From Candidatus Chisholmbacteria bacterium RIFCSPHIGHO2_01_FULL_52_32 (GTDB lineage Bacteria; Patescibacteriota; Microgenomatia; UBA1400; Chisholmbacteraceae), in assembly GCA_001816585.1 (NCBI GenBank), contig MHCJ01000003.1:778681-842680 (forward strand): a stretch of DNA of 64,000 bases. The letters run 5' to 3'. The notes under the pieces are model-generated. The model saw only the letters and a list, made by a program, of their open reading frames with translations, made no database searches and was not told the DNA's origin. Below are positions 1 through 50,155 of this stretch, one piece after another (within the stretch, counting starts at the first letter, position 1; each line of letters begins with the position of its first letter). A program made the position numbers and the translations under genes.

Positions 1-69
1 GACCTTTTGGTGTTTGGCAAGGTACGCATTTCTGATTCTTGTGGCAAAGTCTCCAATTGTGTCAATCAT
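1..69 (-). CDS. rpsH: 30S ribosomal protein S8, N-terminal fragment (gene continues beyond window start)
   Basis: Reverse complement of 1-69 translates to MIDTIGDFATRIRNAYLAKHQKV, matching the S8 N-terminus (..DPIADMLTRIRNA..). Position immediately downstream of rpsZ fits the spc operon order. Confidence 0.6.
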   Translation of the reverse strand, partial: MIDTIGDFATRIRNAYLAKHQKV

Positions 70-127
70 AAGATAAGAATAGGATATAGCCTGCCTGCCG
101 GCGAGGCAGGGGTATAGGGTTCTGTTA

Positions 128-313
128 TTACCATGATGCTTTGGTGACTCCCGGCAATTCTCCTTTATGGGCAAGTTCTCTGAAACAGAGGCGGCAAATT
201 CCGAACTGGCGGAGGTAGGATCTGGGTCTGCCGCAAAGCTGGCAGCGGTTGTGCTTCCTTGAGGAAAATTTCGGTTTTCTCTGATCTTTGAGGATTTTCG
301 ATTTTTTTGCCAT
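128..313 (-). CDS. rpsZ: 30S ribosomal protein S14, type Z (zinc-binding, 61 aa)
   Basis: 61-aa ORF with [20 protein letters not shown] CxxC..CxxC motif; sits between rplE and rpsH as in spc operons. Confidence 0.9.
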
Positions 314-10658: not shown

Positions 10659-11138
10659 CTACCAGCGGAAATGGGCAAACGCCTTGTTGGCCTCTGCCAT
10701 TTTATGAGAAGTGATCTTTCGCTGAAAGGCCATTCCTTCACCCTTGGCTGCATCCATGATCTCGGAAGCGAGCTTTTCGGAAAACGTCCGAAATTCTTTG
10801 TTTGGACGTTTCCTGGCCTCAGCAACAAGCCAGTGGAGAGCCAAAGAAAGGCTGCGTGGGCCCCGGATGGGGGTCGGTACTTGATAGGCTGCTCCTCCGA
10901 CGCGCCGGGACCTAACCTCCATAAGGGGAGATATATTTTGAATGGCAGTCTCGAATACTTCGATTGCATCTTGCTTCGATTTCTCTTTAATAAGGCCTAA
11001 GGCCCCGTAGACATGGTGTTGGGCGATGGTCTTTTTCCCTTGGCGCATCACCATGCTAATCAGTTTCTCAACCGTTCGGTTTTCGTATATTGGATCCGGT
11101 GAAATTTTCCTCTGTGGCGTTTTTCCGCTTCTCGACAT
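10659..11138 (-). CDS. rpsG: 30S ribosomal protein S7
   Basis: 159 aa canonical S7. Confidence 0.95.
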
Positions 11139-11147
11139 AATTTCTCC

Positions 11148-11618
11148 CTAGGCTGCTTCGGTGTCTGTCTTTGCCTCCGTTTCCTCTGGTGTTCCCGGGA
11201 TCATCACCTTTCCTCCACTTCGAGTTCCGTATTTGGATCTTCCCTGCTTTCTTCCCTCAACACCGCTTGAATCGAAGACTCCTCGAACAATATGGTATTT
11301 CACGCCCGGTAGATCCTTTACTCTTCCGCCCCGCACTAAGACGATGGCGTGTTCAGCGAGTTGGTGGCCTTCTCCGCCGATATAGGCCGTCACTTCCTGC
11401 TTGTTTGATAGTCTCACCCTGGCTACTTTGCGGAGCGCCGAGTTCGGTTTCTTGGGTGTCATCGTTTTTACGATTATGCACACCCCCCGCTTTTGAGGGT
11501 TTGCGGTCTCTCTCATCAACCTTTTCGGCGCATTGAACGATCGCCTGAGGGCGGCGGCTTTAATTTTCTTTCGTATTTTTTTGCGTCCTTTACGGACAAG
11601 CTGGTTCATGGTTGGCAT
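11148..11618 (-). CDS. rpsL: 30S ribosomal protein S12, with about 19-aa C-terminal extension
   Basis: [12 protein letters not shown].. canonical S12; tail [19 protein letters not shown] beyond the usual C-terminus. Confidence 0.95.
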
Positions 11619-11639
11619 AGGTTTTTCTTTTTTATTCTG

Positions 11640-11672
11640 TTAAACGAAAAACAGCGGGCGACGCCGCTGTTT
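11640..11672 (-). terminator. Hairpin (9-bp stem AAACAGCGG/CCGCTGTTT) plus U-tract on the minus transcript, 20 nt upstream of rpsL and 160 nt downstream of rpoC; terminator or attenuator
   Basis: Read from sequence: plus TTAAACGAAAAACAGCGGGCGACGCCGCTGTTT; minus transcript gives the hairpin followed by UUUUCGUUUAA. Confidence 0.4.
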
Positions 11673-11834
11673 GGAAGGGACTTTCTCCTCTTAATGCCTT
11701 ATCCTCCCTTCTGCGCAACGCTTCGTCTTACCCAAAGCATTCTTCCCCCTTTCGATGAACTTGTTGACCACAAGTTCCGATCGCATCGGTTGGTATTGTA
11801 CCATACAAGGCGGGTTTGACTCAATGATCGATCG

Positions 11835-14800
11835 TTATTTCTTCTCCTCATCCTGAAGGAAGCGCTCTTTTTCGACGGGTATGAGCCTGCCAATGATGAC
11901 ATTCTCTTTGAGCCCGAGCAGCCGATCTTCTTTCCCTTGGATAGCGGCTTCTGTGAGGATGCTGGTGGTTTCCTGGAACGAGGCTGCAGAGAGCCAGGAT
12001 TCGGTGTAGAGAGATGCCCTGGTTATCCCGAGGATGACGATTTGGGCCGTTGCCGGCTCTCCTCCTTCCGCAAGAATTGCTTCGTTCTCCTCCTCAAAGC
12101 GTTCTTTGTTGATGAGCTCTCCTGGAAGAAGGTCCGTATCTCCGGTCGACTCTATTTTTACCTTGTCGCTCATCTTGCGGATGATGATTTCAAAATGACG
12201 ATCATTAATGGGAATCCCTTGACTCTCATACACCTGTTGGATTTCACTCAAGAGATATTCTTGGGCCGCTCGGAGTCCCCGAATCTTTAGAACTTCCTTG
12301 ATGTCAAGACTTCCAGACGATATTTGGTCTCCGACCCCGACGAGATCTCCCTCTTTTACGCGTAGGGTTGAGGTGAGTTGCACGAGATATTGTTTCTCTT
12401 CAATCGGTTTGCCCGATGATTTTATTGTCACTTTGTACCCTTCAGGTGTTTCCTCAATCGAGATTTTCCCGGCAATCTCGCTCATCGGAGACACCATCTT
12501 GGCGGTACGGGCCTCAAACAACTCCTCCACCCTTGGTAAACCTTGGGTCACATCGAGTCCAACGATTCCCCCAGTGTGCTTGACACGCATGGTCAATTGG
12601 GTTCCCGGCTCGCCGATCGACTGGGCTGCGATGACCCCAACAGGCGTTCCGATCTCGACAAGTTTTCGACTCGAGAAATCCCATCCATAGCAGGTTTGGC
12701 ATACTCCATATCTTGCCTGGCAGGTGAGGGGCGAGCGAGCATCCACCTCGCTTATCTTGGTTTTCTTCAACTCTTCAAGTTTCTCTTCATCGATCAACTC
12801 ATCTTTCTTGATGAGAATCTTTTTTGTTTTGGGACTCATGATTTTCTTGGCAGAAATTCTTCCCAGAATACGCATGTAGAACGATTTTCCCCTTGTTCCA
12901 TCAGCTTTTATGGTAATGCATTCCGTTGTTTTACAATCAATCTCCCTCACCAGGCTATCGTGGGCGACATCCACCAGTCGGCGCGTTAAGTATCCCGCAT
13001 CTGCCGTCTTTAAGGCTGAATCCGTCAATCCTTTCCGGGAACCCCGGGCTGAAGTCACATATTCAAATACCGAAAGACCTTCACGGAAGTTTGACTTGGT
13101 CGGAAGTTCTACAATTTTTCCCAACGGATCAACCACCAGGCCTCGCATTGCCGCAAGTTGTTTCACCTGATCTTTGCTAGCTCGAGTTCCCCCAGAGTCG
13201 ATGCTCATTTTCACCGCGTTACTCTTCTCAAAATTTTCCCAAGTCCGCTCGGCGATAAGGTCCGTGGTCTCCATCCAAATTTCATTGGAGAGCCTTCTTT
13301 TCTCTTCCTGGGTAATGAGTCCCTCTTTGTAGTTTTCTTGGACTTCTTCGACCTTCCGGTTTGCTTCCTTGATCAATTCATCTTTATCCCGAATGATCTT
13401 ACAATCGGAAACGGCAATTGACAGCCCAGAACGGGTTGCCGCATAGAACCCGATGTCTTTGAGATTATCAATAAGGTCAGTCGTCTCTTCTTCGGTAAGG
13501 GTTGAAATCGCCCGACGAATGAGTTCTTTAATTTCTCCAAGGGTTATTGCCCTGTTTAAGAACCGGAATGCTTGGGGGAGAAGATTGTTGAAGATAAGCC
13601 TGCCAACGGTCGTTTCTATGATCTGCGGTTTGCCGTTTTTGGCAAGGTTCACTTTGATCATCTGGCGCAATTTTACCTTCCCGATCTCGTAGGCAAGGAT
13701 TATTTCCTCTGGTGTCGAAGCGATTATTTCATTTGGTTTAATGGCTTCATCAACGGAAGTTAAGTAATAGCAACCGAGGGCCATTTCTTTGTTCGGAATC
13801 GTGATTGGTGATCCGTCCGCTGGTTTTAGGAGATTTTTCTTGGGCATCATAAGACTCTCGGCCTCTTCTTTCGCCACTTTCCCGAGAGGAATATGAACGG
13901 CCATTTGATCTCCATCGAAGTCGGCGTTGAATCCTGCACAGATACAGGGATGGATACGAATGGCATTACCATCGACGAGTATGGGAAAGAACGCCTGGAT
14001 GCCGAGCTTGTGTAGGGTTGGGGCACGGTTTAAAAGCACGGGGTGGTTGTGGGTGATATTTTCCAAGATGTCGTAGACTTCCGGCGCCCTCCGTTCCATG
14101 ATGTGTTTCGCTGATTTGACGTTCGGTGCGATGCCTTTGAGGATGAGTTCGCGGAGGACATATGGTTTGAACATTTCAAGCGCCATTTCTTTGGGAAGTC
14201 CACACTGACTGAGCTTGAGATCCGGGCCAACGATGATGACTGAGCGCCCAGAATAATCTACCCTTTTCCCCAACAGGTTTTGCCGAAAACGGCCCTGTTT
14301 CCCCCGTAACATGTCTGAAAGGGATCGGAGTTGCTTCCCGATTCGACGCCTTCTCGTCGTTCTTGATTGAGAAGCATCAATCAACGAATCTACCGCCTCT
14401 TGGAGCATGCGCTTTTCGTTTCGCAGGATGATTTCCGGAGCTCCTAAATCGATCAGGTGCTTCAGGCGATTATTTCGATTTATCACCCTTCTGTAGAGGT
14501 CATTGAGGTCGGAAGTTGCAAACCTTCCTCCGGATAACTGGACCATTGGACGCAAGTCAGGAGGTATGACTGACAGAACCTTGAGGACCATCCAGGACGG
14601 ATCAATCCCCGCTTTCTTCAGTCCAGTAATCACACGCAACCGTTTGGTTGCCTTGACTTGGCGCTGTCCCGTGTATTTTCGGCTCTGTTCCCGAAGCTTG
14701 GCCGTTAATTTCTCATAATCGATGGTATTTACGAGTTTTAGAAGCGCTTCGGCACCCATCCCTACCTCGAGATGACTGGTTGCTTGGTAATCAAAAAGTT

Positions 14801-15548
14801 TCAGGTATTCATCTTCCGTCAATAGGGAACCTCTTTTGATTTTCCGGACGATGTCTTTGACCGCGCGAAAGACGTCCTCTGCATTTTGCTGTTCTTGGAG
14901 CAGTGCTTCTTTCAGGTTGGCGATTTCCTGCTTGTTCTTAAGTTTTCGCTCTTCAATAGTCAGATCCCGCTGCTCTGAGGATTTGACTTTGGATTTGATA
15001 CTGGCTAAATCTTCCTTTACCTTTTCTTCAGCCTTCTTGATCTCCGCTTCGGTTGCACGTTCGAGTTCTTCCTTCTTTCCCTTCAATTTTTCGTCAAGGC
15101 GTTTAAGAATTTCCTCACGCTCGTTTTCATCAACCTTCAAAACCAGGTACTGGGCAAAGTAAATTACGGAGGCGAGGTTTCTGGGAGAAATATCAAGAAG
15201 CAAGGAAAGCTTTGAGGGCGTTCCCTTAAAGAACCAGACATGTGCGACGGGGGCGGCGAGATTGATATGGCCCATCCGTTCACGGCGGACACGACTCTGC
15301 GTTACTTCGACGCCGCACTTGTCACAGATAATTCCCCTGTAGCGAATCCGTTTGTATTTCCCGCAGTAGCATTCCCAATCTTTTGTCGGGCCGAATATCC
15401 GCTCGCAAAACAATCCATCTTTTTCCGGTTTGAGCGTTCGGTAGTTGATGGTTTCCGGCTTTGTCACTTCGCCATGAGACCAAGCAAGCATGATCTCAGG
15501 TGAGGCAAGTTTGATTTGCAGGCCCTGAAAATCGATAATATTTTTCAT
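11835..15548 (-). CDS. rpoC: DNA-directed RNA polymerase subunit beta'
   Basis: 1237 aa; Zn-binding CxxC...CxxC N-terminus, NADFDGDQM catalytic motif. Confidence 0.97.
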   Translation of the reverse strand: MKNIIDFQGLQIKLASPEIMLAWSHGEVTKPETINYRTLKPEKDGLFCERIFGPTKDWECYCGKYKRIRYRGIICDKCGVEVTQSRVRRERMGHINLAAPVAHVWFFKGTPSKLSLLLDISPRNLASVIYFAQYLVLKVDENEREEILKRLDEKLKGKKEELERATEAEIKKAEEKVKEDLASIKSKVKSSEQRDLTIEERKLKNKQEIANLKEALLQEQQNAEDVFRAVKDIVRKIKRGSLLTEDEYLKLFDYQATSHLEVGMGAEALLKLVNTIDYEKLTAKLREQSRKYTGQRQVKATKRLRVITGLKKAGIDPSWMVLKVLSVIPPDLRPMVQLSGGRFATSDLNDLYRRVINRNNRLKHLIDLGAPEIILRNEKRMLQEAVDSLIDASQSRTTRRRRIGKQLRSLSDMLRGKQGRFRQNLLGKRVDYSGRSVIIVGPDLKLSQCGLPKEMALEMFKPYVLRELILKGIAPNVKSAKHIMERRAPEVYDILENITHNHPVLLNRAPTLHKLGIQAFFPILVDGNAIRIHPCICAGFNADFDGDQMAVHIPLGKVAKEEAESLMMPKKNLLKPADGSPITIPNKEMALGCYYLTSVDEAIKPNEIIASTPEEIILAYEIGKVKLRQMIKVNLAKNGKPQIIETTVGRLIFNNLLPQAFRFLNRAITLGEIKELIRRAISTLTEEETTDLIDNLKDIGFYAATRSGLSIAVSDCKIIRDKDELIKEANRKVEEVQENYKEGLITQEEKRRLSNEIWMETTDLIAERTWENFEKSNAVKMSIDSGGTRASKDQVKQLAAMRGLVVDPLGKIVELPTKSNFREGLSVFEYVTSARGSRKGLTDSALKTADAGYLTRRLVDVAHDSLVREIDCKTTECITIKADGTRGKSFYMRILGRISAKKIMSPKTKKILIKKDELIDEEKLEELKKTKISEVDARSPLTCQARYGVCQTCYGWDFSSRKLVEIGTPVGVIAAQSIGEPGTQLTMRVKHTGGIVGLDVTQGLPRVEELFEARTAKMVSPMSEIAGKISIEETPEGYKVTIKSSGKPIEEKQYLVQLTSTLRVKEGDLVGVGDQISSGSLDIKEVLKIRGLRAAQEYLLSEIQQVYESQGIPINDRHFEIIIRKMSDKVKIESTGDTDLLPGELINKERFEEENEAILAEGGEPATAQIVILGITRASLYTESWLSAASFQETTSILTEAAIQGKEDRLLGLKENVIIGRLIPVEKERFLQDEEKK

Positions 15549-18500: not shown

Positions 18501-19020
18501 TGCGGGTCACTTGAAATTCAAGCCATGAGCCACGCATGGGGCGGAGTTCCGCTTTATGGAGCATCCTTCCTGTTGCAGGATCAACTTCTCCTGAGAAAAA
18601 GACGCCGGGGGAACGGACTAACTGATTCACCACTGCCCGTTCGATTCCATTGATGATGAAGGTTCCCGTTTGTGTCATCTTTGGGATATCTCCAAGAAAA
18701 ACTTCCTGCTCCGTCACTTCACCGGTTTGTTTGTTGGTAAGACGGGCTTCAACCTTCAGTGGCATCTCATACGTCACGCCTTTGGTTTTTGCCTGATCAG
18801 GTGTATTCTTCGGAGGGCCGAACCGGTGTTTGCCAAGCGCGATTTGCCAGTTCTTTCCGGTGAAATCTTCAATTGGCGAGATCGCTTCCAAGGCTTCAGC
18901 GATTCCTATCGTGAGAAACCATTGGTACGAATCACGCTGTACCGCAACGAGATCAAGAGGTGGGATATGTTCTCGAGCTCTTCCCCAGTTCAGACGAAAG
19001 TTTGTTTTATTTCTGGTCAT
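15562..19020 (-). CDS. rpoB: DNA-directed RNA polymerase subunit beta
   Basis: About 1150 aa with conserved rpoB blocks. ORF-track start 19080 is TTG; first ATG at 19020 (MTRNKTNF..). Confidence 0.97.
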   Translation of the reverse strand: MTRNKTNFRLNWGRAREHIPPLDLVAVQRDSYQWFLTIGIAEALEAISPIEDFTGKNWQIALGKHRFGPPKNTPDQAKTKGVTYEMPLKVEARLTNKQTGEVTEQEVFLGDIPKMTQTGTFIINGIERAVVNQLVRSPGVFFSGEVDPATGRMLHKAELRPMRGSWLEFQVTRNDLITVKIDRHRKFPVTVLLRAVGLVEDDKILETFSGLDADADHQYITTTIAKDQTKTREEAVVEIYEKMRPGEPAVLENANQYLYQLFFDSRRYDLAMVGRYKLNRRLGIDIPNAKANHVLHSEDIIATVRYLIGLQNGQGKVDDIDHLSNRRVRCVGELVVITAFRIGLLRLERSIREKMSLTKADEKITPATLVNARPVIATISEFFRRNRLSTILDQTNPLSEIDNLRRLSVMGPGGVTRERASFSMRDINSSQYARICPIRSPEGPNIGLVNYMALYARVNEFGFLEAPYKKVIKVERSGKTQMRISDEIVYLSADEEEQYYITHAEVNIDKDGYIIEEWLPVRYQGEFLEAPAEQAQYIDLVSRQVVGTSASLIPFIAHDEANRALMGTHMQCQAVPLLRPDSPIVGTGMEQSVIESMERSIRARHDGKVTYVDATKVEIQVNQKEAEQMKKEALEDPREYLSVNGNKEDYIVQKFSRSAQSTCYSQTPVVKVGQRVKKGDLIIDGPCSADGELALGQNLVIAYMSFDGLGYEDAIIISERMVREDVLSSIHINEYEAQVMDTKLGPEELTRDIPNVGEADLRNLGEDGIVVIGSEVGPNDILVGKIAPKGETELTAEERLLRAIFGEKAREVRDTSLRMPHGEGGTVIDVKILDRDQGDELDPGVNKKVVIRIAQMRKVTVGDKLAGRHGNKGVISKIIPIEDMPYLEDGTPVDIIISPLSVLARMNLGQLLEAHLGWAAKRLGFKVAIPVFEKIPEEIINKEMEKAKLPVSGKVQLYDGRSGQRLEEETVVGIGYILKLIHMIEDKTHARSTGPYSLVTQQPLGGKAQMGGQRLGEMEVWALEAHRASHTLQEMLTIKSDDVVGRAKAFEAIVKGTDIPEATVPESFKVLVKELESLSLEVIPTGAIEEDVLEVAQEEIQAASSQPAIGEPQPQNDKQASESKDRSDGKEEKQEENREKDQKEVSKTIQGE

Positions 19021-19200
19021 TTTTTTCTTGCCAATCCTTCTTTTTCCAACTTCACCCGTTTTGCTCTTCAAAATACGCAAAAACCCGGGTTTCCCCAGGT
19101 TTTCTTCTTTTGTTTATTCCTTTTTTATGAGAAAGCGGATCGTTGTGTCAGATGGAATGTGCACGGTGGGTATTTTCAGCTTGATTGCTAACTGTTTTTT

Positions 19201-19240
19201 CAAAAAACAAAAAATAGACGTACAAAAAGTACGCCTTTTT
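19201..19240 (-). terminator. Weak hairpin (CGTAC/GTACG) followed by a 14-nt U-rich tract on the minus transcript, in the rpoB leader downstream of mltG; bidirectional-looking
   Basis: Plus: CAAAAAACAAAAAATAGACGTACAAAAAGTACGCCTTTTTT. Confidence 0.3.
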
Positions 19241-19257
19241 TGGAAAGGCTCGTTTTG

Positions 19258-19286
19258 TTTATAACAAATTCTGACTCGCTTGTCAA
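19258..19286 (-). promoter_or_regulatory. Near-consensus sigma70-type promoter for rpoBC (TTGACA-N17-TATAAA on the minus strand)
   Basis: Reverse complement reads cTTGACAagcgagtcagaatttgtTATAAAc; starts 14 nt after the mltG stop. Confidence 0.4.
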
Positions 19287-19299
19287 GCCTTCATGGGTT

Positions 19300-20307
19300 T
19301 TATTTGTTGAGGTATGTTACGATATTCCGATTGTGTTCTTCAATGGTTTGGGCGTAATGTAATTGTCCTTCGTTATCTGAGAGGTAAAACCAAAAGGCGG
19401 ATTCTTGTGGATTGGCGACAGCGTTGAGAGAGGCGAGGGAAGGATTACAAATGGGGCTCGGCGGGAGACCTGTTCTTTTATAGGTGTTTAAGGGAGAGTT
19501 GATCTCAATATCCGCTTTTGTGAGTGATTTTTTCCACCAACTATCTTCTTTCTGCTGATATCCTAGAGCATATTGAATAGTCGCATCTACCTGAAGTGGC
19601 CATTGGTTCTTCCACCGTTTGATCAGGATGCCTGCCACGAGGGGGCGGTCTGTGGCGAAGCGTGCTTCGCGTTCGACTAGAGAGGCTAAAATGATTGCCT
19701 GTTCCATCGAGAGTCCCTGATTTCCGATTGCCGTGCGGGTATCTTGGCCTATTTTCCTCGTAAATGTCTCTGAGAGGAGATCTGCAATTTCTCTTGCTTC
19801 CATGCCTGTGGGAATGAAATAGGTATCGGGAAATAAATAGCCTTCTTTCCCTTCTGTCGCGGCAAGGAATTCTTCCCGGTTAAAGCTTAAGCCTCGCTTT
19901 GTGAATTGATCACTGAGCTCCATTGCCATTTCCTCCCTTCTCCATCCCTCAATAAGAGTTACCCTTATATCCGAGGTGCCGTGGGTCAGGGTCTTGGATA
20001 TTTCATCCAAGCTCATCGCTTTCGAGAGTTCATAGTCTCCGGCTTGTATGCTCTTTTGGAGTCCTTTTCCCACTACCAATATTTTAAATGCTCCTTTTGA
20101 ACGAATGAGATCCTCGTTGGTTAATTTTTTACCAATGGCGTCTATCGAATCGCCGCGGGTGACCGTTATCATTATCTTTTCTTCTGCCTTGGGATCGACT
20201 GGAGAGGTCAACAAGCGGAAGCCTGCACTTATCCCTACAATGGCAAGTAAGAGACCGCCTATGAGAGAGGCAGATAACGCATTTCTGGTTCGTTGTCCCT
20301 TGTTCAT
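19300..20307 (-). CDS. mltG: Endolytic murein transglycosylase MltG/YceG family
   Basis: 335 aa; N-terminal TM, YceG-like domain (..YLFPDTYF.., ..GLPPSPI..NP..). Confidence 0.85.
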   Translation of the reverse strand: MNKGQRTRNALSASLIGGLLLAIVGISAGFRLLTSPVDPKAEEKIMITVTRGDSIDAIGKKLTNEDLIRSKGAFKILVVGKGLQKSIQAGDYELSKAMSLDEISKTLTHGTSDIRVTLIEGWRREEMAMELSDQFTKRGLSFNREEFLAATEGKEGYLFPDTYFIPTGMEAREIADLLSETFTRKIGQDTRTAIGNQGLSMEQAIILASLVEREARFATDRPLVAGILIKRWKNQWPLQVDATIQYALGYQQKEDSWWKKSLTKADIEINSPLNTYKRTGLPPSPICNPSLASLNAVANPQESAFWFYLSDNEGQLHYAQTIEEHNRNIVTYLNK

Positions 20308-20333
20308 ACGGGGGTATCTGCTTTTGGAGAACC

Positions 20334-20534
20334 TTACACTTCTTCAAAGAAGGCACGTCGGTATTTACCGGTCTGCGGATCGTGGATGAAGATCCGACCG
20401 CACTTACAGGTGACCTTCTCCGTTCCGTCTTTGCGCTTCACTTTCTTTCCGCGGAAAAGCGGTGTACCGCACCCGGCGCATTGTCCACGGGAGAGCAACC
20501 AAGCCTGAACTGGAGCGATAATGTTTTTCAACAT
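20334..20534 (-). CDS. Small Cys4 zinc-ribbon protein (66 aa), function unknown
   Basis: CAGCG...CKCG spacing of a zinc ribbon; own ATG; sits between ruvX and mltG. Confidence 0.45.
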   Translation of the reverse strand: MLKNIIAPVQAWLLSRGQCAGCGTPLFRGKKVKRKDGTEKVTCKCGRIFIHDPQTGKYRRAFFEEV

Positions 20535-20579
20535 ACTTCCCGTCCATTATAACATCATTCCTCAACGCCGCTTTCTCTT

Positions 20580-20954
20580 TTATCCATCTATAAATTCCTG
20601 GAGGATGAGGGTTGCGGCATAGGCATGTTTTGGCCTTTTTCGTTTGTCCCTCCCACTGCCGCCCTCAATCAATTTCCGCGTTACCTGTTCTGTCGTGAGG
20701 GTTTCGTCTTGGAAGACAATTGGTATCTTTACGACTTGTTCAAGCTGTTGGGCAAATTGATGGGTTTTTTGGGCCATTTTTCCTTCAGAGAGGCCGACAA
20801 CTATCTTTTCGATCCCTTGTGTGTGGCATATTTGCCTGATCTCTTCGTACACTTTCGGAGCGGTCTTTAGGTTTGCCAAAGGCTCCGCAAGTGGACCGGT
20901 CGCTAAGGCCAGTCCGATATGTTTGAGACCGAAATCGATTCCGAGTATTACCAT
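20580..20954 (-). CDS. ruvX: Putative pre-16S rRNA nuclease / Holliday-junction-resolvase-like YqgF
   Basis: 124 aa, MVILGIDFGLKHIGLALA.. RNase H-like YqgF signature. Confidence 0.85.
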   Translation of the reverse strand: MVILGIDFGLKHIGLALATGPLAEPLANLKTAPKVYEEIRQICHTQGIEKIVVGLSEGKMAQKTHQFAQQLEQVVKIPIVFQDETLTTEQVTRKLIEGGSGRDKRKRPKHAYAATLILQEFIDG

Positions 20955-21019
20955 CCTGTACGAGTAAAAAGTGTAAATTGAAAAATACAGATTGGCGAAC
21001 TTTTCCCCTGTCTATGGCT

Positions 21020-21745
21020 CTAGACCTTGATGAGGGCAGCAGTAATCACAGCGCGACGAAGGTATGTTCCTGGCGGCGTACAGGTAATGAGGCGGAGATA
21101 TTCGTTGTCATACGATTGCTCAAGAACCGTGAGGTTATCGGGTTTTACCTCTGTTTTGTCAATTACCCGATAGGTATAGGAAATTCCATCGAATTTTATG
21201 AGCACTTCGTCTCCAATTTCCATCGTTGGGACAAGGGAAAAGATCGCCTTGTAATTCTTCGGATTGAAGAATTGGGGGAGAATTGAATGACCGAAGATAA
21301 TGGTTGCGCCCAGCTCTCCGGGAAGCGCTGAGCCTTTATATTGGACAAGATTTTTAGAAAGGTCTTCTCCGCCAATGGCTACCGTCGCGTCAATGATATT
21401 GAATTTCGGTATCGATAGCGTGTAGTGGGTAATTTTGGATTCCCTTGCCGTGTTCGGTTTCGCATTGGGAAACCAGTCTGTGGGATTCAGCAATTCCTGG
21501 CTCGCTGAGCCAAACTGATCGGGCTCGCTACCCTTTACAGGTATGGGGGTAACAAACTGTTGGGGCTTGAGACTTGGAGCGGTAAATACCTCATATGAAA
21601 CAATTGGCCAAATGACACTTCCTATGATCATCGTCCCGGCAACCATGAGCCCTTTTGCTGCTATCTTGGGTCGACTCTGTCTCCTATCGCTTGATCCTTG
21701 TGCTTCTGGCTCGATCCTTCGTTTGACGTACCGATAGGGTTTCAT
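21020..21745 (-). CDS. Sortase family transpeptidase
   Basis: N-terminal membrane anchor; catalytic His (IIFGHSI), Cys in LRLITCTPPGT (TLXTC) and Arg (YLRRAV). Confidence 0.8.
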   Translation of the reverse strand: MKPYRYVKRRIEPEAQGSSDRRQSRPKIAAKGLMVAGTMIIGSVIWPIVSYEVFTAPSLKPQQFVTPIPVKGSEPDQFGSASQELLNPTDWFPNAKPNTARESKITHYTLSIPKFNIIDATVAIGGEDLSKNLVQYKGSALPGELGATIIFGHSILPQFFNPKNYKAIFSLVPTMEIGDEVLIKFDGISYTYRVIDKTEVKPDNLTVLEQSYDNEYLRLITCTPPGTYLRRAVITAALIKV

Positions 21746-24024
21746 TCACGCTCTTCGACTTTCATTTCTATCGATATATTTTTGGTAAATCTCGGTATAT
21801 GTTTGAGACGGTCAGGAATTCCGCTAGGAGTAATCTGAATGTCTACCTTCACCACGTTCGGGAGTTTTTCTAAAAATTCTAGGGCAATATCCGGATATTT
21901 TCCTTTGAGGTCTTGTTTTAGCTGTTCCTCATCGATCTGCGGCACGAGAACCGCTTTGTACAATAGTGTTACTTGTCCTACGGCATCTTTCATATCAGCT
22001 GATCGAATTTCCGTTTGACTTTCCTCTTCCTGAAGCTCAAAGTCCTGGGGAGTTGCCTCGCTTATTGCCTGTCGTAGGATTTCCTTTAGGTCATCTTCTC
22101 TATAGGCAAGCGACTTTACTTTCAGCCTGATTGTCGCTTGTATCTTCTGTGCCTCATCTCCAACTTTTCCGCTCAATTCTTGGGATATTACTTCCGTTTC
22201 GGCTCCCTCGTTCAACACTCTGTTTCCTTCGTCCTCCTTTTCCTCTAGTTTTACTGCCCCTTCTGTCTTGAGTTCTGTCGTTAATTCGGCAAGCAGGGTC
22301 TCGATATCTTCGTCTGAAATTGCTGGAACTTCACGGCTCGTTCCTCCGGAAAATGGCGTTTCGTTTTTCGCATCGTATGAAGCCGTTGAGAAAGACTTTA
22401 GAGAAAAATCAGTATTGGTAGAGAGATTGTACTCGGATCCAATTTGCGAGGCAGTCGCTTTCCCTTTGGCTTTTCCGAACATCGTGGTGAGAGCCTCGTC
22501 ACTCTCCTTGGCACTTGCGGATGCGACCGTGACTGGACCGTCAAGGGTGAAAGCTAGGTTGTTCGGGCCCAACACTACTGTTCCTTCCGGAAATGTCTTG
22601 GTTGCCGTGGTCTTGTTATAGATCGTCACCTCACCCGCGGCTTTCTCTCCGACTACTTTGATTCCCGTCACTTCTTTTTCTTTGGAATTTTCCACTTCGA
22701 TCTCGACAATTTTCCCGGGAATGAGATTTTTGGCGCTTTCTATCTGCGTGCTTTCGGGGGAAATGGTAACGGTCAGCTCTTTCTCGAGCGTCCTTGGCTT
22801 AACATAGAGGATCAATCTGGCTTTGGGTATTGTCCAATAGCCATAGACGCTAAGACCCGTTAAAAGGCCGAAGAATCCGAGTGCAACGATCAGGGCGACT
22901 TTTATCCTTGTTGCGACCAACACATCCGGAAGAGATAGTTTGGGCATGCGGATTGGAAAAGGACGCGGGAGGAAGGCAAGGATGTGTTTCAGTCCGGTTC
23001 TTACATCTTGTCTCGCCTCCGGCTCTCCTCTCTGTTCTTCTTTCTGGGAGGTTTTCTTCGGAAAAAGAGGCTTTTCCTCATGTTCTTCCCTGTCTCGGGC
23101 GGTTGGTTGATACACATCGCTTTCAAGTTTAAACCCAATTTCATCTGCCTGAGCGATGATCTCGGGTTCCCCCTCCTTCTCTTTTTCCTCCGTTTCTTCT
23201 GCCTCCGTCTCCCGGGGTTCTTCTTGGACCTCTTCCCTGGTCTCGTCCTCTTCTTCGGTCATCTCAAACCCAAGTGCTTTGGCTGCTTCTGTCCCTCCAG
23301 CGATGGCGACCGCCTTGATCGTCACCTGGATGTCCAATATCTCTACCTTTGGAAAATGCAAGAACGGAAGTTTCTCAAGCCAATTATATGAGAGGAGATC
23401 CTGTCTTACGTCTTCCAAATTGAGCGAAGCGTTATAGAGAAGCATTCTTGAAGGGAAGTTCTCGGTCGTCTCGAACCGCGCCAGTCCTTCTTCCACATCC
23501 GCGCCGACATCTTCGCTCCGTGCGACTACCTCAGAGCCCACTACTTTTCCAAGATTGACAAGCGTCACCTGTATTTCTGACTGGTTAACGCGAACAAGGA
23601 TTGCTGTCGGCGGAGTTCCCTCTTCGCGTTTGAGGAGTTGAACGATCGCTTCCGTTGTGACCACAAATCCGATTGGTTTAAATCCGAATTTCTGGCTAAT
23701 TTGTCGAAGGGTCTTGGCGTGTTCCTTGACAATTTCTTCTCCCTCAACCCAACCTTCCTGAAGTCCAAAAATGACCTTGTTCGGCTCAGGTTTGATTTCT
23801 TCAAGTTTCTGAAGCGAATTATCGATCGCAACCAAAAGGCCCTCGTTTGAGCCCTTCTCGACCTCCCATTCCTCCGTTGTACCCACCTTTATAATTTTGG
23901 TTTGTCCGTCAATCACCTGCCAAACCGCGGTGGTTACCGTTTCACTCCCAATTTCAACTGCCAGGAATTGCTCTTGGGCTTTTTCTTTTGTGGTCAATTT
24001 TGAGAAAATGTCTTCCAATGCCAT
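21742..24024 (-). CDS. 760-aa bitopic membrane protein: compact FtsA/PilM-like actin-fold N-terminal domain, poly-acidic linker, TM helix, about 370-aa extracytoplasmic domain
   Basis: N-terminus FLAVEIGSETVTTAVWQV.. and later ..ILVRVNQSEIQVTLVNLGK.., ..IKAVAIAGGTEAAKALGF.. align with FtsA phosphate-1, phosphate-2 and adenosine motifs; E/D-rich stretch; TM IKVALIVALGFFGLLTGLSVYGYW; stop overlaps the sortase start (ATGA). Confidence 0.55.
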   Translation of the reverse strand: MALEDIFSKLTTKEKAQEQFLAVEIGSETVTTAVWQVIDGQTKIIKVGTTEEWEVEKGSNEGLLVAIDNSLQKLEEIKPEPNKVIFGLQEGWVEGEEIVKEHAKTLRQISQKFGFKPIGFVVTTEAIVQLLKREEGTPPTAILVRVNQSEIQVTLVNLGKVVGSEVVARSEDVGADVEEGLARFETTENFPSRMLLYNASLNLEDVRQDLLSYNWLEKLPFLHFPKVEILDIQVTIKAVAIAGGTEAAKALGFEMTEEEDETREEVQEEPRETEAEETEEKEKEGEPEIIAQADEIGFKLESDVYQPTARDREEHEEKPLFPKKTSQKEEQRGEPEARQDVRTGLKHILAFLPRPFPIRMPKLSLPDVLVATRIKVALIVALGFFGLLTGLSVYGYWTIPKARLILYVKPRTLEKELTVTISPESTQIESAKNLIPGKIVEIEVENSKEKEVTGIKVVGEKAAGEVTIYNKTTATKTFPEGTVVLGPNNLAFTLDGPVTVASASAKESDEALTTMFGKAKGKATASQIGSEYNLSTNTDFSLKSFSTASYDAKNETPFSGGTSREVPAISDEDIETLLAELTTELKTEGAVKLEEKEDEGNRVLNEGAETEVISQELSGKVGDEAQKIQATIRLKVKSLAYREDDLKEILRQAISEATPQDFELQEEESQTEIRSADMKDAVGQVTLLYKAVLVPQIDEEQLKQDLKGKYPDIALEFLEKLPNVVKVDIQITPSGIPDRLKHIPRFTKNISIEMKVEERE

Positions 24025-24066
24025 AGACTCTCCGCTTCGCCGATCGTGGAGAGGGAGTTTAGTTTC

Positions 24067-24104
24067 ATTCTAGCATCAAGGGGTGATTATTTCGAGCACA
24101 AGAA
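24067..24104 (-). promoter_or_regulatory. Candidate extended -10 promoter (TGcTAGAAT) for the FtsA-like/sortase operon
   Basis: Minus strand reads ...tcgaaaTAATCACCCCTTGATGCTAGAATgaaac; about 40-nt leader with GGAGAG SD before the ATG. Confidence 0.25.
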
Positions 24105-24120
24105 CCACTCTGTTTCTGTC

Positions 24121-25959
24121 TTATGAATGGAGTTCTGCGTAGATTCTGCGGATGCCGCTTTGGACCGGTTGTTCCTTTATGATGCGTATTCCGCCGATTC
24201 CGCCGGTCGATTTGACGTGGGGTCCGCCACAAAATTCTTTACTGAACCATTCCTTTGCAGGATCTTTGCCGATTGTGTATACGGAAACCATCGCTGGGTA
24301 ATTTTCTTTAAAGAATGCCAAGGCTCCTGATTTGAGAGCTTTGTCTTTTTCCTCCACCGTTCTGTGCACGGGAAGGTCTTCTTTAATTTTTTGATTGACC
24401 ACGGTCTCGACCTTGGCGATTTCCTCTCCAGAGAGCTTTCTTGGGTGTGAGAAGTCGAACCGAAGGCGCTCGGCGGTGATGTTACTGCCTTCTTGGCGAA
24501 CATGATTCCCCAGTATTTCCCGTAAAGCCTTGTGGAGGAGGTGGGTAGCGGTGTGGAGTTTCACGGTTTCGTCCGATTTATCGGCAAGGCCGCCTTTGAA
24601 TAATCCTTTTGTGGCGGTACGGGAGGTTTCCTGATGTTGACGTTTCGCTTCCTCAAAGCCTTTACCGTCAACCATGACTCTTTTTTGTGCAGCAAGTTCC
24701 TTTACCAATTCTGGTGGATAGCCGTAGGTCTGGTATAGGTCGAATAATTCGGTTCCTGTGATTGTTCCTCCCCCGACTTTCGAAAGCACCTTTTTCATTC
24801 CTTGAGAAAGCGTTTTCTCGAATTTGGTGATTTCGATACGAATGGTTTCCAGGATGCGTCCTTGGTTTTCTCCGAGATTCGGGTCAACTGTTATATAGGA
24901 GCCGCAGAGCTTATCGATGACGAGGTTGATGCTATTGTCAAGATCGATATCGGCAATTTTGCTATGGAGTGCTGCTCTTCTGATGAGTCTTCTGAGGACA
25001 TATCCTTGGAGTTTATTTGCAGGCTCAAAGCCATCGCTCACCATAAACATCGCTGCCCGCAGGTGGTCTAAGATTATCCTGACTGCTCTTATGCTCTCCG
25101 GCGAGCTGACCACAACGACTTTTTCCAATGTTTTCCTTGCTTCTGTAAAGATATCAATATTGAATATGTCAGGTTGATTTTGGCTGGCGGATGCGATGCG
25201 TTCGAGGCCGCCGCCGAAATCGACGTTTTTTTGGGGTAATGGCTTAAACGAATCATCTGCCTGTTTTTCATACTGCATGAACACCGAGTTGCCGATCTCT
25301 ACAAACCGACCGCAATTACAATTGAGGTGGCAGACTCTGCCAAACTTTGGGTCATGGGAAGTTTGAAAATCATAGAAAACTTCGGAGTCCGGGCCCCCAA
25401 TCTCTCCCGGTGGCATGTTTGCCGGTATTCCGGAGCGTGACCACCAGTTTTTATCGGCTCCGTATGTATAGATTTTGATGGTGGGTTCGAATCCATCAGC
25501 GCCTTTTCTGGCGGGAGCATTGGTCTTTAAGACTTTTTTCCAAACGGTGACTGATTCTTCATCTTTTGGAACAACCGCATCTCCCTCAAACACCGTTACA
25601 TACAGCCTTTCCGGTTTTAAGCCAATTTCTTCGGTGAGGAACTCAAAAAACCAGGGAAGTTGCTCTTTCTTAAAATAATCTCCAAGGCTCCAGTTGCCGA
25701 GCATTTCGAAGAACGTAATATGGCGGTTGTCGCCGACCTCGTCGATGTCTTCTGAACGAAAGCAAGGTTGACTATCCATCAACCGCCTGCCCATCGGGTG
25801 GGGCTCTCCCTTTAAGAAGGGAACCAGCTGTTGCATGCCTGAACTTGTAAACAAGGTCGTTGGATCATTGGGAGGCACGAGGGGTGCTTTGGGGATTTCT
25901 CTATGTCCCCTCATTCCGAAGAACTTGATGAACCTGGTGCGAATTTCGTTTGCCTGCAT
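24121..25959 (-). CDS. alaS: Alanine--tRNA ligase, short form (612 aa; catalytic, tRNA-recognition and editing domains, no C-Ala domain)
   Basis: FTSSGMQ, editing-site HxxxH (HTATHLLH) and CGGPHV motifs. Confidence 0.95.
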   Translation of the reverse strand: MQANEIRTRFIKFFGMRGHREIPKAPLVPPNDPTTLFTSSGMQQLVPFLKGEPHPMGRRLMDSQPCFRSEDIDEVGDNRHITFFEMLGNWSLGDYFKKEQLPWFFEFLTEEIGLKPERLYVTVFEGDAVVPKDEESVTVWKKVLKTNAPARKGADGFEPTIKIYTYGADKNWWSRSGIPANMPPGEIGGPDSEVFYDFQTSHDPKFGRVCHLNCNCGRFVEIGNSVFMQYEKQADDSFKPLPQKNVDFGGGLERIASASQNQPDIFNIDIFTEARKTLEKVVVVSSPESIRAVRIILDHLRAAMFMVSDGFEPANKLQGYVLRRLIRRAALHSKIADIDLDNSINLVIDKLCGSYITVDPNLGENQGRILETIRIEITKFEKTLSQGMKKVLSKVGGGTITGTELFDLYQTYGYPPELVKELAAQKRVMVDGKGFEEAKRQHQETSRTATKGLFKGGLADKSDETVKLHTATHLLHKALREILGNHVRQEGSNITAERLRFDFSHPRKLSGEEIAKVETVVNQKIKEDLPVHRTVEEKDKALKSGALAFFKENYPAMVSVYTIGKDPAKEWFSKEFCGGPHVKSTGGIGGIRIIKEQPVQSGIRRIYAELHS

Positions 25960-26897: not shown

Positions 26898-27533
26898 TTA
26901 GGGAACCACCGTTATCGTCCGTTGAATGGTTCGTACTTTTCCGGAGCGGCTGGTCGCTTTGATCGTAATTGTTCTTGTTCCTTGAGGAAGAATTAGGGAT
27001 TGGCTGAATGAACCGTCGGGATTTACCAACACTTCTTGATTATTGATTGTTAAGGTTGCCTGAGGGTCGGTTTTCCCTTCAACCGTGATGTCCGCACTCA
27101 CTCTGGCTTGCTCCTCTGGCTTTATCACCTCAAGTTCTGGTGCTCCAGCAAGCAGTTTGTACTGATAGAAAAAGTAGGTTGCCAAGAGTATTGCGAGAGA
27201 CAGAATGCCAACAATCGTTGTGGTCTTTGGGGTCCAAATGGCTCGCTTTTCGGTTGAGGGAGGAACCAGTTCTCTTGGGACTACCTGTCCCTTTATATTT
27301 TGGTCATAATCGCGGCGAAAGACGGCGAGGGCTTGATTGGGATCGAGTCCTACTGCATTGGCATAATTGCGAATAAATCCTTTGACGAAGGCTGCTTCTG
27401 GCAGGTTATCGTATTCGTTGTTTTCCAGCGCCTGGAGGTACTTGAGGTTTATTCTTGTTTTTTTCGCGAGTTCAATCCGTTTAAGCCCCTGTTTGAGGCG
27501 AGCGCTTTTTAGAATTTCTCCAACCGTTTTCAT
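26898..27533 (-). CDS. rodZ: RodZ-like cytoskeleton protein (HTH_XRE - TM - C-terminal domain)
   Basis: MKTVGEILKSARLKQGLKRIELAKKTRINLKYLQALEN HTH; single TM; beta-rich C-terminal domain. The long ORF-track start (27647, TTG) would overlap ftsK. Confidence 0.6.
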   Translation of the reverse strand: MKTVGEILKSARLKQGLKRIELAKKTRINLKYLQALENNEYDNLPEAAFVKGFIRNYANAVGLDPNQALAVFRRDYDQNIKGQVVPRELVPPSTEKRAIWTPKTTTIVGILSLAILLATYFFYQYKLLAGAPELEVIKPEEQARVSADITVEGKTDPQATLTINNQEVLVNPDGSFSQSLILPQGTRTITIKATSRSGKVRTIQRTITVVP

Positions 27534-27615
27534 GGATTCTTTTTCGATTCCTTGTTTTCTCTTTAAACCCCGTTTCTCTTCTGGGAGAATATATCGAGAA
27601 TTGTTATGATTTTTC

Positions 27616-29709
27616 TTATTCCTCGGAGGCAATGTGTTGGCGGGCAATGAAGGCGCTCGCGTTCTGAATTAGAACCTCTCGTGGCTTGGATCCGTCTTGC
27701 GGACCCACAACGCCGGCATGCTCGAGTTGATCGAGTACCCTTGCAGCGCGTGAATATCCAATTGAAAGCCGCCGTTGTAATAACGAGGCTGAGGCGCGAT
27801 CGTATTCGCAGACTACCCGAACTGCTTCTTCGAATAGAGAATCTTTTTCCTGATCTCCAATATCTGCCGTCTGGGGTCTTGCCTTATATTTTGTGGTTAC
27901 CTCTTCGGTGTATTGCGGCTTTTGTCCACTTCTCCTTAAGAACTCAATGAGTTTCTGGATTTCCGCTTCTGAAACATAGGTACCTTGGATTCTGGTTGGT
28001 TTTGCTTGTTCTGGAGGAATGTAGAGCATATCCCCTCTTCCGAGCAACTTCTCCGCTCCAGGCATGTCGATGATGACCCTTGAGTCGACCATGCTGGTTA
28101 CGTTAAAGGCGATTCGACAAGGAATATTGGCTTTAATAAGCCCGGTTATGACGTCAACTGACGGGCGCTGGGTGGCAACAATCAAATGGATACCGGTTGC
28201 CCTAGCCATTTGGGCTAACCTTGTAATGGCATCTTCAACATCAGAAGGTGCGAAGAGGATAATATCGGCAAGCTCATCAATGATGATGACGATGTAAGGC
28301 AACGCTTGGAATCCCGACATTTCATTGTACCCTTCGATGTTGCGGGCGCCGACTTCGGCAAACATCTTGTATCGTTTTTCCATTTGTGCGATGGCCCATT
28401 TCAGGGCCGAAACTACCTTTTCGGGCTCAACAATAACGGGAGTCAAGAGGTGTGGAATTCCGTTGTACAATGTCAGTTCTACTCGCTTGGGGTCGACCAA
28501 GATAAATTTCACCTCCGAGGGCGATGCGCGATACAGCATTGTTGCGATGAAGGAGTTTATCGAGACGGATTTTCCACTCCCGGTTGCTCCGGCAATCAAT
28601 ACATGGGGCATGCGTCCGATATCCGCGACGACCGCTGTTCCTGATACGTCCAATCCTAGCGCAACGGAGAGGACCGATTTTGCCTTTTTTATCTGATCAG
28701 AAACAAGCATCTTTTTGAGGGTCACAAACTCGGGGGTTCGGTTTGGAATTTCCACTCCAACGAGGGCTCTGCCCGGGATGGGAGCTTCTATACGAATTTG
28801 GCCGGTAGGGGCCGCAAGGGCAAGGGCCAAGTCATTTTGGAGGGCTGTAATTTTCGATAGCTTTGTGCCCAGGGATATCTCCAGCGCGTACTGCGTTACC
28901 GCAGGTCCGGTGTTGACTTCAACCACGCGAGCTTGAATCCCAAAGGAATCCAAGGTTTGTTCGATGATCGCTGCATTTCCCTTGACATCTCCACGGTCCG
29001 CTTTTGCACCTACGGAATCGCTTAAAAGATCAAGCGGGGGATACTCCCAAACTTCCTGCTGCGGTCCCGGTGCGTTAGTCACAATTTGGGTTCCCAATTC
29101 TTCCTCTTCCCTTTCCTTCTCCTCCCGCTTTGCCTCGCCCATTTTGGGCCTCCGTTCTTCTTCCATGCCGCGAATCTTTATTTCCGTCTGAGCAAGGTAG
29201 GCCGGCCTCCGTTTTTGGCTCGAGAGCTTCGGCAGCTTTCTTAAAAGCTTTGTTACCGTTAGTAAAATTTCATCAAAAGGGGTTTCTGTAAAGATAATAA
29301 AGCCGATCGCAACACTTCCCAAAAGAATGATCACGGCTCCCGGCTTTGAGATGAGAGCCGCGATGTTCAGCCAAAGCTCCTTACCAATGTTACCGGCGCC
29401 CGTCAAGGCCATTGCCGAAATAATGAATAAGAGATTTCCCAAAAACACGTTCGGTTTGGTCACTTTCCATTTCAATTGGGTAAGCATTAAGCCCGCCGCG
29501 ATAATGAGAAACGGGATGAGAAGTGAGGTCCAGCCAAATTGCATTGTGAGGAATGTATTTATGCGATCGAGAAGCACTCCTTGACGGGAAAAGGAAATAA
29601 TGAGAAGTACACCTAGGGAAATCAACAGCACGCTTGCGATTGAATAGAGCGTGTCTTTGCGGAGTTTGAGTTTGAATGGCGCGCGGCGCCGACCTCGTTT
29701 TCTTCCCAT
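27616..29709 (-). CDS. ftsK: DNA translocase FtsK/SpoIIIE
   Basis: N-terminal polytopic TM, Walker A GATGSGKSV, C-terminal gamma winged-helix (..LLQRRLSIGYSRAARVLDQLE..). Confidence 0.9.
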   Translation of the reverse strand: MGRKRGRRRAPFKLKLRKDTLYSIASVLLISLGVLLIISFSRQGVLLDRINTFLTMQFGWTSLLIPFLIIAAGLMLTQLKWKVTKPNVFLGNLLFIISAMALTGAGNIGKELWLNIAALISKPGAVIILLGSVAIGFIIFTETPFDEILLTVTKLLRKLPKLSSQKRRPAYLAQTEIKIRGMEEERRPKMGEAKREEKEREEEELGTQIVTNAPGPQQEVWEYPPLDLLSDSVGAKADRGDVKGNAAIIEQTLDSFGIQARVVEVNTGPAVTQYALEISLGTKLSKITALQNDLALALAAPTGQIRIEAPIPGRALVGVEIPNRTPEFVTLKKMLVSDQIKKAKSVLSVALGLDVSGTAVVADIGRMPHVLIAGATGSGKSVSINSFIATMLYRASPSEVKFILVDPKRVELTLYNGIPHLLTPVIVEPEKVVSALKWAIAQMEKRYKMFAEVGARNIEGYNEMSGFQALPYIVIIIDELADIILFAPSDVEDAITRLAQMARATGIHLIVATQRPSVDVITGLIKANIPCRIAFNVTSMVDSRVIIDMPGAEKLLGRGDMLYIPPEQAKPTRIQGTYVSEAEIQKLIEFLRRSGQKPQYTEEVTTKYKARPQTADIGDQEKDSLFEEAVRVVCEYDRASASLLQRRLSIGYSRAARVLDQLEHAGVVGPQDGSKPREVLIQNASAFIARQHIASEE

Positions 29710-49102: not shown

Positions 49103-49114
49103 CAAAAACCCTTT

Positions 49115-49765: not shown

Positions 49766-49770
49766 CGATT

Positions 49771-50091: not shown

Positions 50092-50155
50092 TCTCTCTCT
50101 TTAAGTAAGTTAGGGTTGAGAAGCACTGGGATTTAGTGCTAGGATGGAATAACCC

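Follow-up and report, generated by a model that had tools for sequence, protein, structure and literature searches.

A class-wide Microgenomatia gene block with an X760-sortase pair and a zinc-ribbon gene between alaS, ruvX and mltG

We analyzed a 64,000-nt stretch of DNA (the window) from a genome of the Microgenomatia (candidate phyla radiation, CPR/Patescibacteria) with a focus on six consecutive minus-strand genes, among them alaS, ruvX (yqgF) and mltG (yceG). Their order is alaS > X760 > sortase > ruvX > Zn > mltG, where X760 denotes an open reading frame (ORF) of 760 amino acids (aa) and Zn a 66-aa ORF for a Cys4 zinc-ribbon protein; alaS, ruvX and mltG lie on one strand and all inside 6.7 kb (Table 1). 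We consider it probable (roughly 0.7) that this region represents a class-wide, vertically inherited Microgenomatia gene block within a long co-directional housekeeping array. The block would comprise three kinds of components, namely the housekeeping genes alaS, ruvX and mltG, an envelope module of X760 and the sortase, and the Zn protein. The co-localization of mltG would then reflect conserved gene order in a streamlined genome rather than a demonstrated functional coupling. All six genes had been located in a first-pass annotation of the window, and our ORF calls and family matches agree with these positions. The homologues of X760 and of Zn come from Chisholm-, Shapiro-, Woese- and Beckwithbacteria and from other metagenome-assembled genomes of the Microgenomates group, and the window was therefore assigned to a Microgenomatia genome.

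Gene order is conserved in two sets of related loci

Gene order was compared in two sets of loci. For the first, one genome per species was scanned with an alignment of the Zn protein; relatives were found in 243 genomes, the best 80 loci were kept, and their gene order was read by tblastn with the window proteins. For the second, metagenome contigs were scanned with an X760 alignment, yielding 80 loci whose selection is independent of the Zn protein. All denominators count assessable loci only. We found alaS in the expected position in 61 of 62 Zn-selected and in 48 of 48 X760-selected loci, and the sortase in 72 of 77 and 67 of 67, respectively. X760 occupied its expected place in 68 of 70 Zn-selected loci, and the zinc ribbon did so in 54 of 55 X760-selected loci. 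ruvX was located between the sortase and Zn in 66/78 (within 1 kb) and 59/60 loci, mltG was found downstream of Zn in 70/74 and 39/43, and rpoB, which is the next gene in the window, was in the expected position in 56/64 and 24/26. Order and strand were identical to those of the window in almost all loci of the first set. The median intergenic gaps within the block are 5, 1, -1, 18 (ruvX-Zn) and 6 bp (Zn-mltG), compared to 153 bp before rpoB. Since the order is kept in nearly all assessable loci of both samples, alaS-X760-sortase-ruvX-Zn-mltG is an old, class-wide arrangement of the Microgenomatia and no local interruption. The synteny of alaS, ruvX and mltG that the first-pass annotation had expected in this lineage is thus borne out by the counts, as is the separation of alaS and ruvX by the X760-sortase pair. 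Its view that the cluster had been interrupted as a notable event did not hold: practically all Microgenomatia genomes in the samples have the X760-sortase pair between alaS and ruvX, and the G+C content is flat. The gene order by itself is ordinary conserved synteny of housekeeping genes.

The presence of lineage-specific genes without family annotation inside a conserved housekeeping cluster could also be explained by a recent foreign or mobile insertion of X760-sortase or of the small ORF, or by the small ORF being a non-coding artefact. This explanation is refuted by synteny and conservation, and we give it almost no weight. The same order recurs in about 150 related loci, in which the proteins have diverged down to 26-40% identity, and the G+C content stays at 0.47-0.49 over the region. 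No flanking repeats, tRNA genes or mobility genes were seen around the block among the window ORFs and in the tRNA scan. Furthermore, the small ORF has more than 1000 homologues of fixed length with invariant cysteines.

Departures from the common order are few. ruvX is absent from its usual place in L014, L021, L029, L030, L038 and L043, where the sortase is followed after 36-91 bp by Zn and mltG; these six loci form one sub-lineage without ruvX in the block. mltG is not in the block in 4 of 74 Zn-selected and 4 of 43 X760-selected loci, and X760, sortase, ruvX and Zn are still together after mltG has left the block in L018, L023, L026, L027, L100, L108 and L128. Conversely, Zn-mltG stands without X760-sortase, behind unrelated genes, in L031, L073 and L076. 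In one locus of a related lineage, L092 (contig of the Joint Genome Institute (JGI) dataset 3300031537, positions 10930-12308), mltG directly follows ruvX in the order alaS-X760-sortase-ruvX-mltG; the stop of ruvX overlaps the start of mltG, and the whole 13-kb contig is devoid of a Zn-ribbon gene. X760 and the sortase are the only pair never found apart.

A comparable cluster is alaS-yrzL-yrrK(ruvX)-yrzB-yrrL(mltG) of Bacillus subtilis, which has alaS, ruvX and mltG in the same order on one strand and likewise carries small lineage-specific genes in the intervening slots. The occupants of these slots differ. Between alaS and ruvX, Bacillus has DUF965 (YrzL/IreB) and the window X760 and the sortase, whereas between ruvX and mltG Bacillus has the DUF1292 protein YrzB and the window a Cys4 zinc ribbon unrelated to it in sequence. 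No Pfam match to DUF965 or DUF1292 was obtained in the two slots of the window block. The first-pass annotation was right in noting a zinc-ribbon ORF instead of a DUF1292-type gene, given that there is no Pfam relation to this family. On the Bacillus side, the order yrrL-yrzB-yrrK-yrzL agrees with the locus tags BSU27370-27400, which follow one another in PMC3814617.

X760 and the sortase form a functional unit

The window sortase scored 70.8 bits against PF04203 (cut-off 26.6) and 47.3 against TIGR01076 (cut-off 39.35). With the sortase fold, a His-Cys-Arg triad, a TLxTC-like motif ('LITCTP') and an N-terminal membrane anchor, it resembles class C and other Gram-positive sortases, and its closest solved structures are class C sortases. 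It differs from them in that the best match in the PDB reaches an E value of only 8e-8 and that the NCBIfam models for sortase classes C, D, E and F gave 28-46 bits, with none of the cut-offs (140-166) reached; the enzyme was assigned to none of the defined classes (A-F). Additional differences are the candidate motif, [VIL]Px[AST]G and not LPXTG, and the obligate, uncharacterized partner gene X760. H153, C222 and R231 were invariant in all 75 sortase sequences compared, and judged by these residues the enzyme is catalytically intact. It adjoins X760 in 67/67 X760-selected loci, often with an overlap, which in the window amounts to 4 nt between the X760 stop and the sortase start. One sortase family has been described as near-ubiquitous in Microgenomates by Méheust et al. 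(PMC6744442).

A candidate substrate is encoded on the plus strand of the window (Table 1). This 471-aa protein has a signal anchor, a fn3/purple-acid-phosphatase-N-like domain, a Big_13 domain and a Pro/Thr-rich stalk, and ends in ...ALPVPGSG, a hydrophobic segment and RKSFLL. The pattern [VIL]-P-x-[AST]-G before a hydrophobic segment and a basic tail is present in 25 of the 29 members of its family and resembles an LPXTG-type signal in which Ala or Ser replaces Thr. The protein is probably a Microgenomatia sortase substrate with a non-canonical sorting motif, and the sortase would anchor surface proteins that carry this tripartite C-terminus. A generic scan for C-terminal anchors in 80 loci yielded too few proteins for defining a motif. 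Directly upstream of the candidate substrate gene lie pilN, pilO and a 106-aa ORF, all on the plus strand, so that type IV pilus platform genes adjoin the gene of a candidate wall-anchored protein (48506-51571).

For X760, 270 homologues were found, and the protein had no significant Pfam or NCBIfam match; a sequence search of the PDB also returned nothing significant. An AlphaFold2 model built with 44 homologues (mean predicted local distance difference test (pLDDT) score 82.7) comprises a compact cytoplasmic actin-fold domain, a disordered acidic, Glu-rich linker, one transmembrane helix and a beta-rich ectodomain (Table 1). Foldseek searches of the PDB matched the N-terminal domain to the actin-fold (ASKHA) proteins PilM, YeaZ, Ppx/GppA and EutJ. 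For the ectodomain, the matches were the GlxA barrel and baseplate proteins from diffocin and a number of phages. In BFVD, a collection of predicted viral structures, the ectodomain aligned to Baseplate J-like proteins across 330-460 columns with a Foldseek probability of 1.0. The TM-scores were low (0.1-0.25), and the baseplate likeness therefore applies to individual domains and not to the whole structure. The Baseplate_J model PF04865 gave 16.3 bits with the window protein (cut-off 21.1), compared to 22.6 and 20.3 bits for the homologues P0176 and P0170, and some X760 homologues showed borderline Pfam matches to Baseplate_J or the GlxA barrel. The ectodomain aligns structurally with Baseplate J (gpJ/gp6-like wedge) proteins of phages and contractile injection systems, but X760 is a cellular protein that is tethered to the membrane and carries an actin-fold domain. 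Its surroundings, in the window and in both sets of related loci, contained no genes for a tail, a sheath or other parts of a baseplate.

The first-pass annotation had called X760 'FtsA-like'. The actin-like (ASKHA) fold stands, while the relation to FtsA does not. X760 had no match at E<=0.01 to the Pfam models FtsA, SHS2_FTSA, PilM and GspL, and FtsA was absent from its top 50 Foldseek matches; a genuine FtsA in L081, on the other hand, matches the FtsA and SHS2_FTSA models. The identification as FtsA was rejected on the grounds that the actin-like fold comes without FtsA/SHS2 sequence domains and without canonical phosphate motifs. In phosphate 1, E24 (36/44) replaces Asp and is followed by variable Gly/Ser, phosphate 2 is without DxG, and only the 'AGG' adenosine motif is retained. 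Because these motifs are degenerate, we infer that the actin-fold domain of X760 is a scaffold rather than an ATPase.

With regard to architecture, X760 resembles GspL and PilM-PilN of type II secretion systems and type IV pili, which share a cytoplasmic actin-like domain, one helix and an extracytoplasmic domain; the best structural matches of the N-domain include PilM. A further point of likeness is that the nucleotide-binding motifs of X760 are degenerate, GspL being a non-enzymatic scaffold too. As to differences, X760 has no Pfam GspL/PilM match, and its outer domain is baseplate-J-like and not ferredoxin-like. Its gene context is alaS and the sortase and not a pilus or secretion cluster, and the window has separate pilN and pilO genes (48506-49765). 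X760 would cross the membrane once, with the topology of GspL or of a PilM-PilN fusion, and its ectodomain may form an extracellular platform working with the co-translated sortase. X760 as a sortase substrate was considered and rejected, as it has no C-terminal sorting signal and no C-terminal hydrophobic segment; lacking this signal, it is a partner and not a substrate of the sortase. X760 and the sortase form the robust functional unit of the block.

The 66-aa ORF encodes a conserved zinc-ribbon protein

At E<=0.01 the Zn search returned 1095 homologues, of which the top 120 are 65-69 aa long and 73-98% identical; nearly all among the matches listed have 66 aa. The start codon is ATG in 72 of 79 loci, many of which have a AAGGAGGTG-type ribosome-binding site, frequently a strong one, and five residues do not vary among 46 diverse members: C19, C22, L26, C43 and C45. 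Given the number of homologues, the fixed length, the invariant cysteines, the ATG start and the ribosome-binding sites, Zn is a real gene and not a chance ORF, and the check on its conservation that the first-pass annotation called for came out positive. The cysteines are arranged in two pairs, C19-x2-C22 and C43-x-C45, and in the AlphaFold2 model (pLDDT 88.9) an N-terminal helix packs on a four-stranded ribbon. We therefore place the protein in the structural class of Cys4 zinc ribbons, with metal binding predicted. It has a net charge of about +9 as calculated from its sequence, and neither a signal peptide nor a transmembrane segment.

Relatives outside the family were scarce. An exhaustive profile search of 1.84 billion cluster representatives yielded 99 Zn clusters at 50% identity, all of them small stand-alone proteins, and no domain fusions were present among these clusters. 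Neither a sequence search of the PDB nor a Foldseek search with the Zn model returned anything significant (best E 0.34, WW-like hairpins), and there was no match at 0.01 to Pfam or NCBIfam, including DUF1292 and Rpr2 (the latter being a JGI naming). A sub-threshold match to PF06750 (A24_N_bact, the zinc-binding N-terminal domain of prepilin peptidase) occurred in 25 of the 46 members (best E 0.0039); at 16 bits versus 23 and over 20 residues (the helix end and the first CxxC), this similarity may be motif convergence or a remote relationship.

In the X760-selected loci, the median identity to the window protein was 74% for Zn, 69% for RpoB, 44% for mltG and 42% for ruvX. Three X760-selected controls for Zn identity gave 51% (L091), absence (L092) and 67%. 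Zn is about as conserved as RpoB, with exceptions. That Zn is more conserved than RpoB was not kept as a claim, as ascertainment bias was suspected in the Zn-selected loci.

Members below about 40% identity, one of them from Dojkabacteria, sit in other contexts. In L081 and L087 the order is gatB-gatC-Zn-lepB-parA-parB, and in L083, L085 and L086 Zn is directly before or near uvrC. The member in L083 overlaps uvrC by 17 nt, and a LysW-type zinc-ribbon gene (12761-12946) and an extracytoplasmic function (ECF) sigma factor gene are nearby. The eight distant contexts disagree (uvrC in 3, lepB-parAB in 2, unrelated genes in 3) and gave no indication of the function of Zn. Overall, the family does not extend beyond the Microgenomatia and their near relatives. 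Only in the Microgenomatia does it occupy the slot between ruvX and mltG, and this position is not indicative of Zn function.

Zn might serve one particular neighbouring gene product, either as a cofactor of the RuvX nuclease in rRNA/DNA processing or as a cytoplasmic regulator of MltG, and in this way a functional analogue of DUF1292 (YrzB). Its location between ruvX and mltG in most loci with the short median gaps given above, its basic character, as expected of a nucleic-acid binder, and the proximity of distant members to the nuclease gene uvrC in 3/8 contexts are consistent with such a role. However, six genomes have Zn-mltG with no ruvX between the sortase and Zn, at least four have ruvX-Zn but no mltG, and in L092 ruvX overlaps mltG with no Zn gene. 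Furthermore, Dojkabacteria-type members are located between gatC and lepB, there is no sequence relation to DUF1292, and the cytoplasmic tail of MltG has only about 12 residues, as read from its sequence. We regard a dedicated partnership as quite improbable, and since distant members occur in unrelated neighbourhoods, Zn was not inferred to be an MltG accessory. Zn would be better explained as a cytoplasmic housekeeping factor whose binding partner is a conserved nucleic acid or a conserved protein.

Relation of the sortase module to MltG

The first-pass annotation had suggested a functional linkage of the sortase module to cell-wall remodelling by MltG. According to such an explanation, the module is placed between alaS and ruvX because it works with MltG, and the block is a functional cell-wall operon in which anchoring to lipid II or nascent peptidoglycan is coordinated with the termination of glycan strands by MltG. 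It fits this idea that sortases take substrates linked to lipid II and that nascent glycan strands are the target of MltG. All three proteins, MltG, X760 and the sortase, belong to the membrane or envelope. Their genes run in one direction with very little space between them, about 90-95% of the assessable loci have the arrangement, and rodZ and ftsK are just upstream. Against it, two genes without a part in the envelope, alaS and ruvX, are embedded just as tightly, and the block itself belongs to a housekeeping array that extends over more than 45 kb. In addition, mltG has left the block in the seven loci listed above with X760-sortase-ruvX-Zn staying behind, and Zn-mltG occurs without X760-sortase in three others. 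The suggested linkage thus goes back to adjacency alone within a co-directional housekeeping run. As this adjacency also binds alaS and ruvX, the block lies within a longer array, and mltG and the sortase are separable, a link to MltG is not supported, and we consider a cell-wall operon unlikely. Gene order does not by itself tie sortase function to MltG.

A number of points weigh against a vertically inherited block without coupling to MltG, or against the roles proposed for its members. A true functional cluster for the envelope would show the same pattern, in which mltG is tightly conserved together with X760 and the sortase, and rodZ and ftsK precede the block at a distance of a few genes. 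Zn-mltG is among the more persistent adjacencies and is kept in L031, L052, L073 and L076 despite different upstream genes. Each of the two locus sets was cut to the best 80 loci of a pattern-limited scan, so that rarer arrangements such as those of L092 and L091 are under-sampled. The [VIL]Px[AST]G motif was defined after the sequences had been inspected, and TIGR01167 scored 13.4 bits on the candidate substrate (cut-off 15.9). The functions of X760 and Zn are deduced from fold, topology and conservation, with no characterized homologue for either, and the operon structure from spacing and pattern scans only.

A further-reaching reading, which we put forward tentatively and consider rather unlikely as a whole, combines two proposals: X760 and the sortase would be an undescribed trans-envelope machine universal in the Microgenomatia, and Zn would be a class-specific core component of information processing. 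In the machine, a dedicated sortase that anchors [VIL]Px[AST]G surface proteins would be held in place by an extracellular, baseplate-J-like platform, itself connected across the membrane with a non-catalytic actin-fold domain, while Zn might be, for example, a ribosome- or nuclease-associated factor. Two findings are new in our data. One is that a sortase is obligately paired with a membrane protein joining an actin fold and a baseplate-J-like ectodomain, the other is a zinc-ribbon family about as conserved as RpoB and without known relative. Literature searches on alaS/ruvX/mltG and on sortase, Patescibacteria and baseplate found nothing on the X760-sortase module or the Zn family. The Microgenomatia are uncultured and have very small genomes, so that a gene kept in almost every member is likely important. 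X760-sortase offers a two-gene target for how Microgenomatia cells build their surface and possibly attach to hosts, and Zn is a candidate for a missing lineage-specific housekeeping factor.

Transcription signals and genomic setting

The class-wide block is probably one tightly packed transcription unit ending after mltG, as suggested by spacing and signal patterns. Terminator-like hairpins just past the mltG stop are the only intergenic ones on the minus strand between upstream of X760 and the end of mltG, and mltG-rpoB is the sole wide gap in the related loci (median 153 bp versus about 0-18 bp in the block); in the window it measures 219 bp. Promoter-like sites in the region are no commoner than in shuffled sequence, and the site in the alaS-X760 gap is weak evidence.

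Table 1 Features of the window. Positions are window coordinates unless given as residues (aa).
Feature	Position	Strand	Evidence or remark
mltG (yceG), membrane-anchored endolytic transglycosylase, 335 aa	19300-20307	-	PF02618 (YceG) 5e-75; TIGR00247 6.8e-60
Zn, zinc-ribbon ORF, 66 aa, basic, Cys4, unnamed family	20334-20534	-	no family match
ruvX (yqgF), RNase H-fold nuclease, 124 aa	20580-20954	-	PF03652 2.6e-26; TIGR00250 6e-17
sortase, membrane-anchored, 241 aa	21020-21745	-	PF04203 1.2e-19
X760, 760-aa ORF, predicted bitopic membrane protein	21742-24024	-	no significant Pfam/NCBIfam match
alaS, short-form alanyl-tRNA synthetase, 612 aa	24121-25959	-	PF01411 (tRNA-synt_2c) 2.6e-106; tRNA_SAD 7.8e-15; NF002436 1.2e-185, full length
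X760 actin-fold domain, cytoplasmic, compact	aa ~15-255		AlphaFold2 model
X760 linker, disordered, acidic/Glu-rich	aa 259-371		AlphaFold2 model
X760 transmembrane helix	aa 373-398		AlphaFold2 model
X760 ectodomain, beta-rich, baseplate-J-like	aa 400-760		AlphaFold2 model
promoter-like site in 96-bp alaS-X760 gap	24067-24095	-	pattern match, TCGAAA-17-TAGAAT with TG
terminator-like hairpins just past mltG stop	19216-19289	-	pattern scan
rpoC	11835-15548		position and size alone
RodZ-like gene	26898-27647	-	HTH_25 4e-23; Glucodextran_B-type 5.7e-14
pilN	48506-49102	+	
pilO	49115-49765	+	
106-aa ORF	49771-50091	+	
candidate sortase substrate, 471 aa	50156-51571	+	candidate C-terminal sorting motif
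PMT-family glycosyltransferases, two	53018-54934, 54855-56624		
GT4 glycosyltransferase	56638-57801		
DUF2298	58447-60570		
LytR-CpsA-Psr ligase	60558-61631		

The minus strand carries a co-directional housekeeping run of more than 45 kb, almost without breaks, which reaches from about 48 kb down to position 1. Upstream of the block the array contains murJ, lepA, hrcA, grpE, dnaK, dnaJ, nusA, infB, pnp, the gene of a Lon-like AAA protein, udg, rnj, ftsK, a RodZ-like gene, DUF948 and YtxH, in this order, and downstream rpoB, rpoC, fusA and tuf. Rfam and tRNA scans of the window gave no matches.

The RodZ-like protein combines an HTH_25 domain with a C-terminal beta-sandwich domain of the Glucodextran_B type, and its gene is kept beside ftsK in related loci. 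The rpoB ORF as listed has a TTG start at 19080, which overlaps a terminator-like hairpin (19104-19079), and orthologue alignments begin near residue 16-29 (window 19020-19104, minus strand). Translation probably begins 60 nt after this TTG, at the ATG of residue 21 (MTRNK...).

On the other side of the window, genes for glycosyltransferases, a DUF2298 protein and a LytR-CpsA-Psr ligase form an envelope glycosylation cluster (53018-62363). The AT skew of the plus strand is strongly negative across most of the window (1-64000; -0.15 to -0.39), with nearly all genes on the minus strand. A strand composition disparity in a complete Microgenomates genome is reported in PMC7143001.

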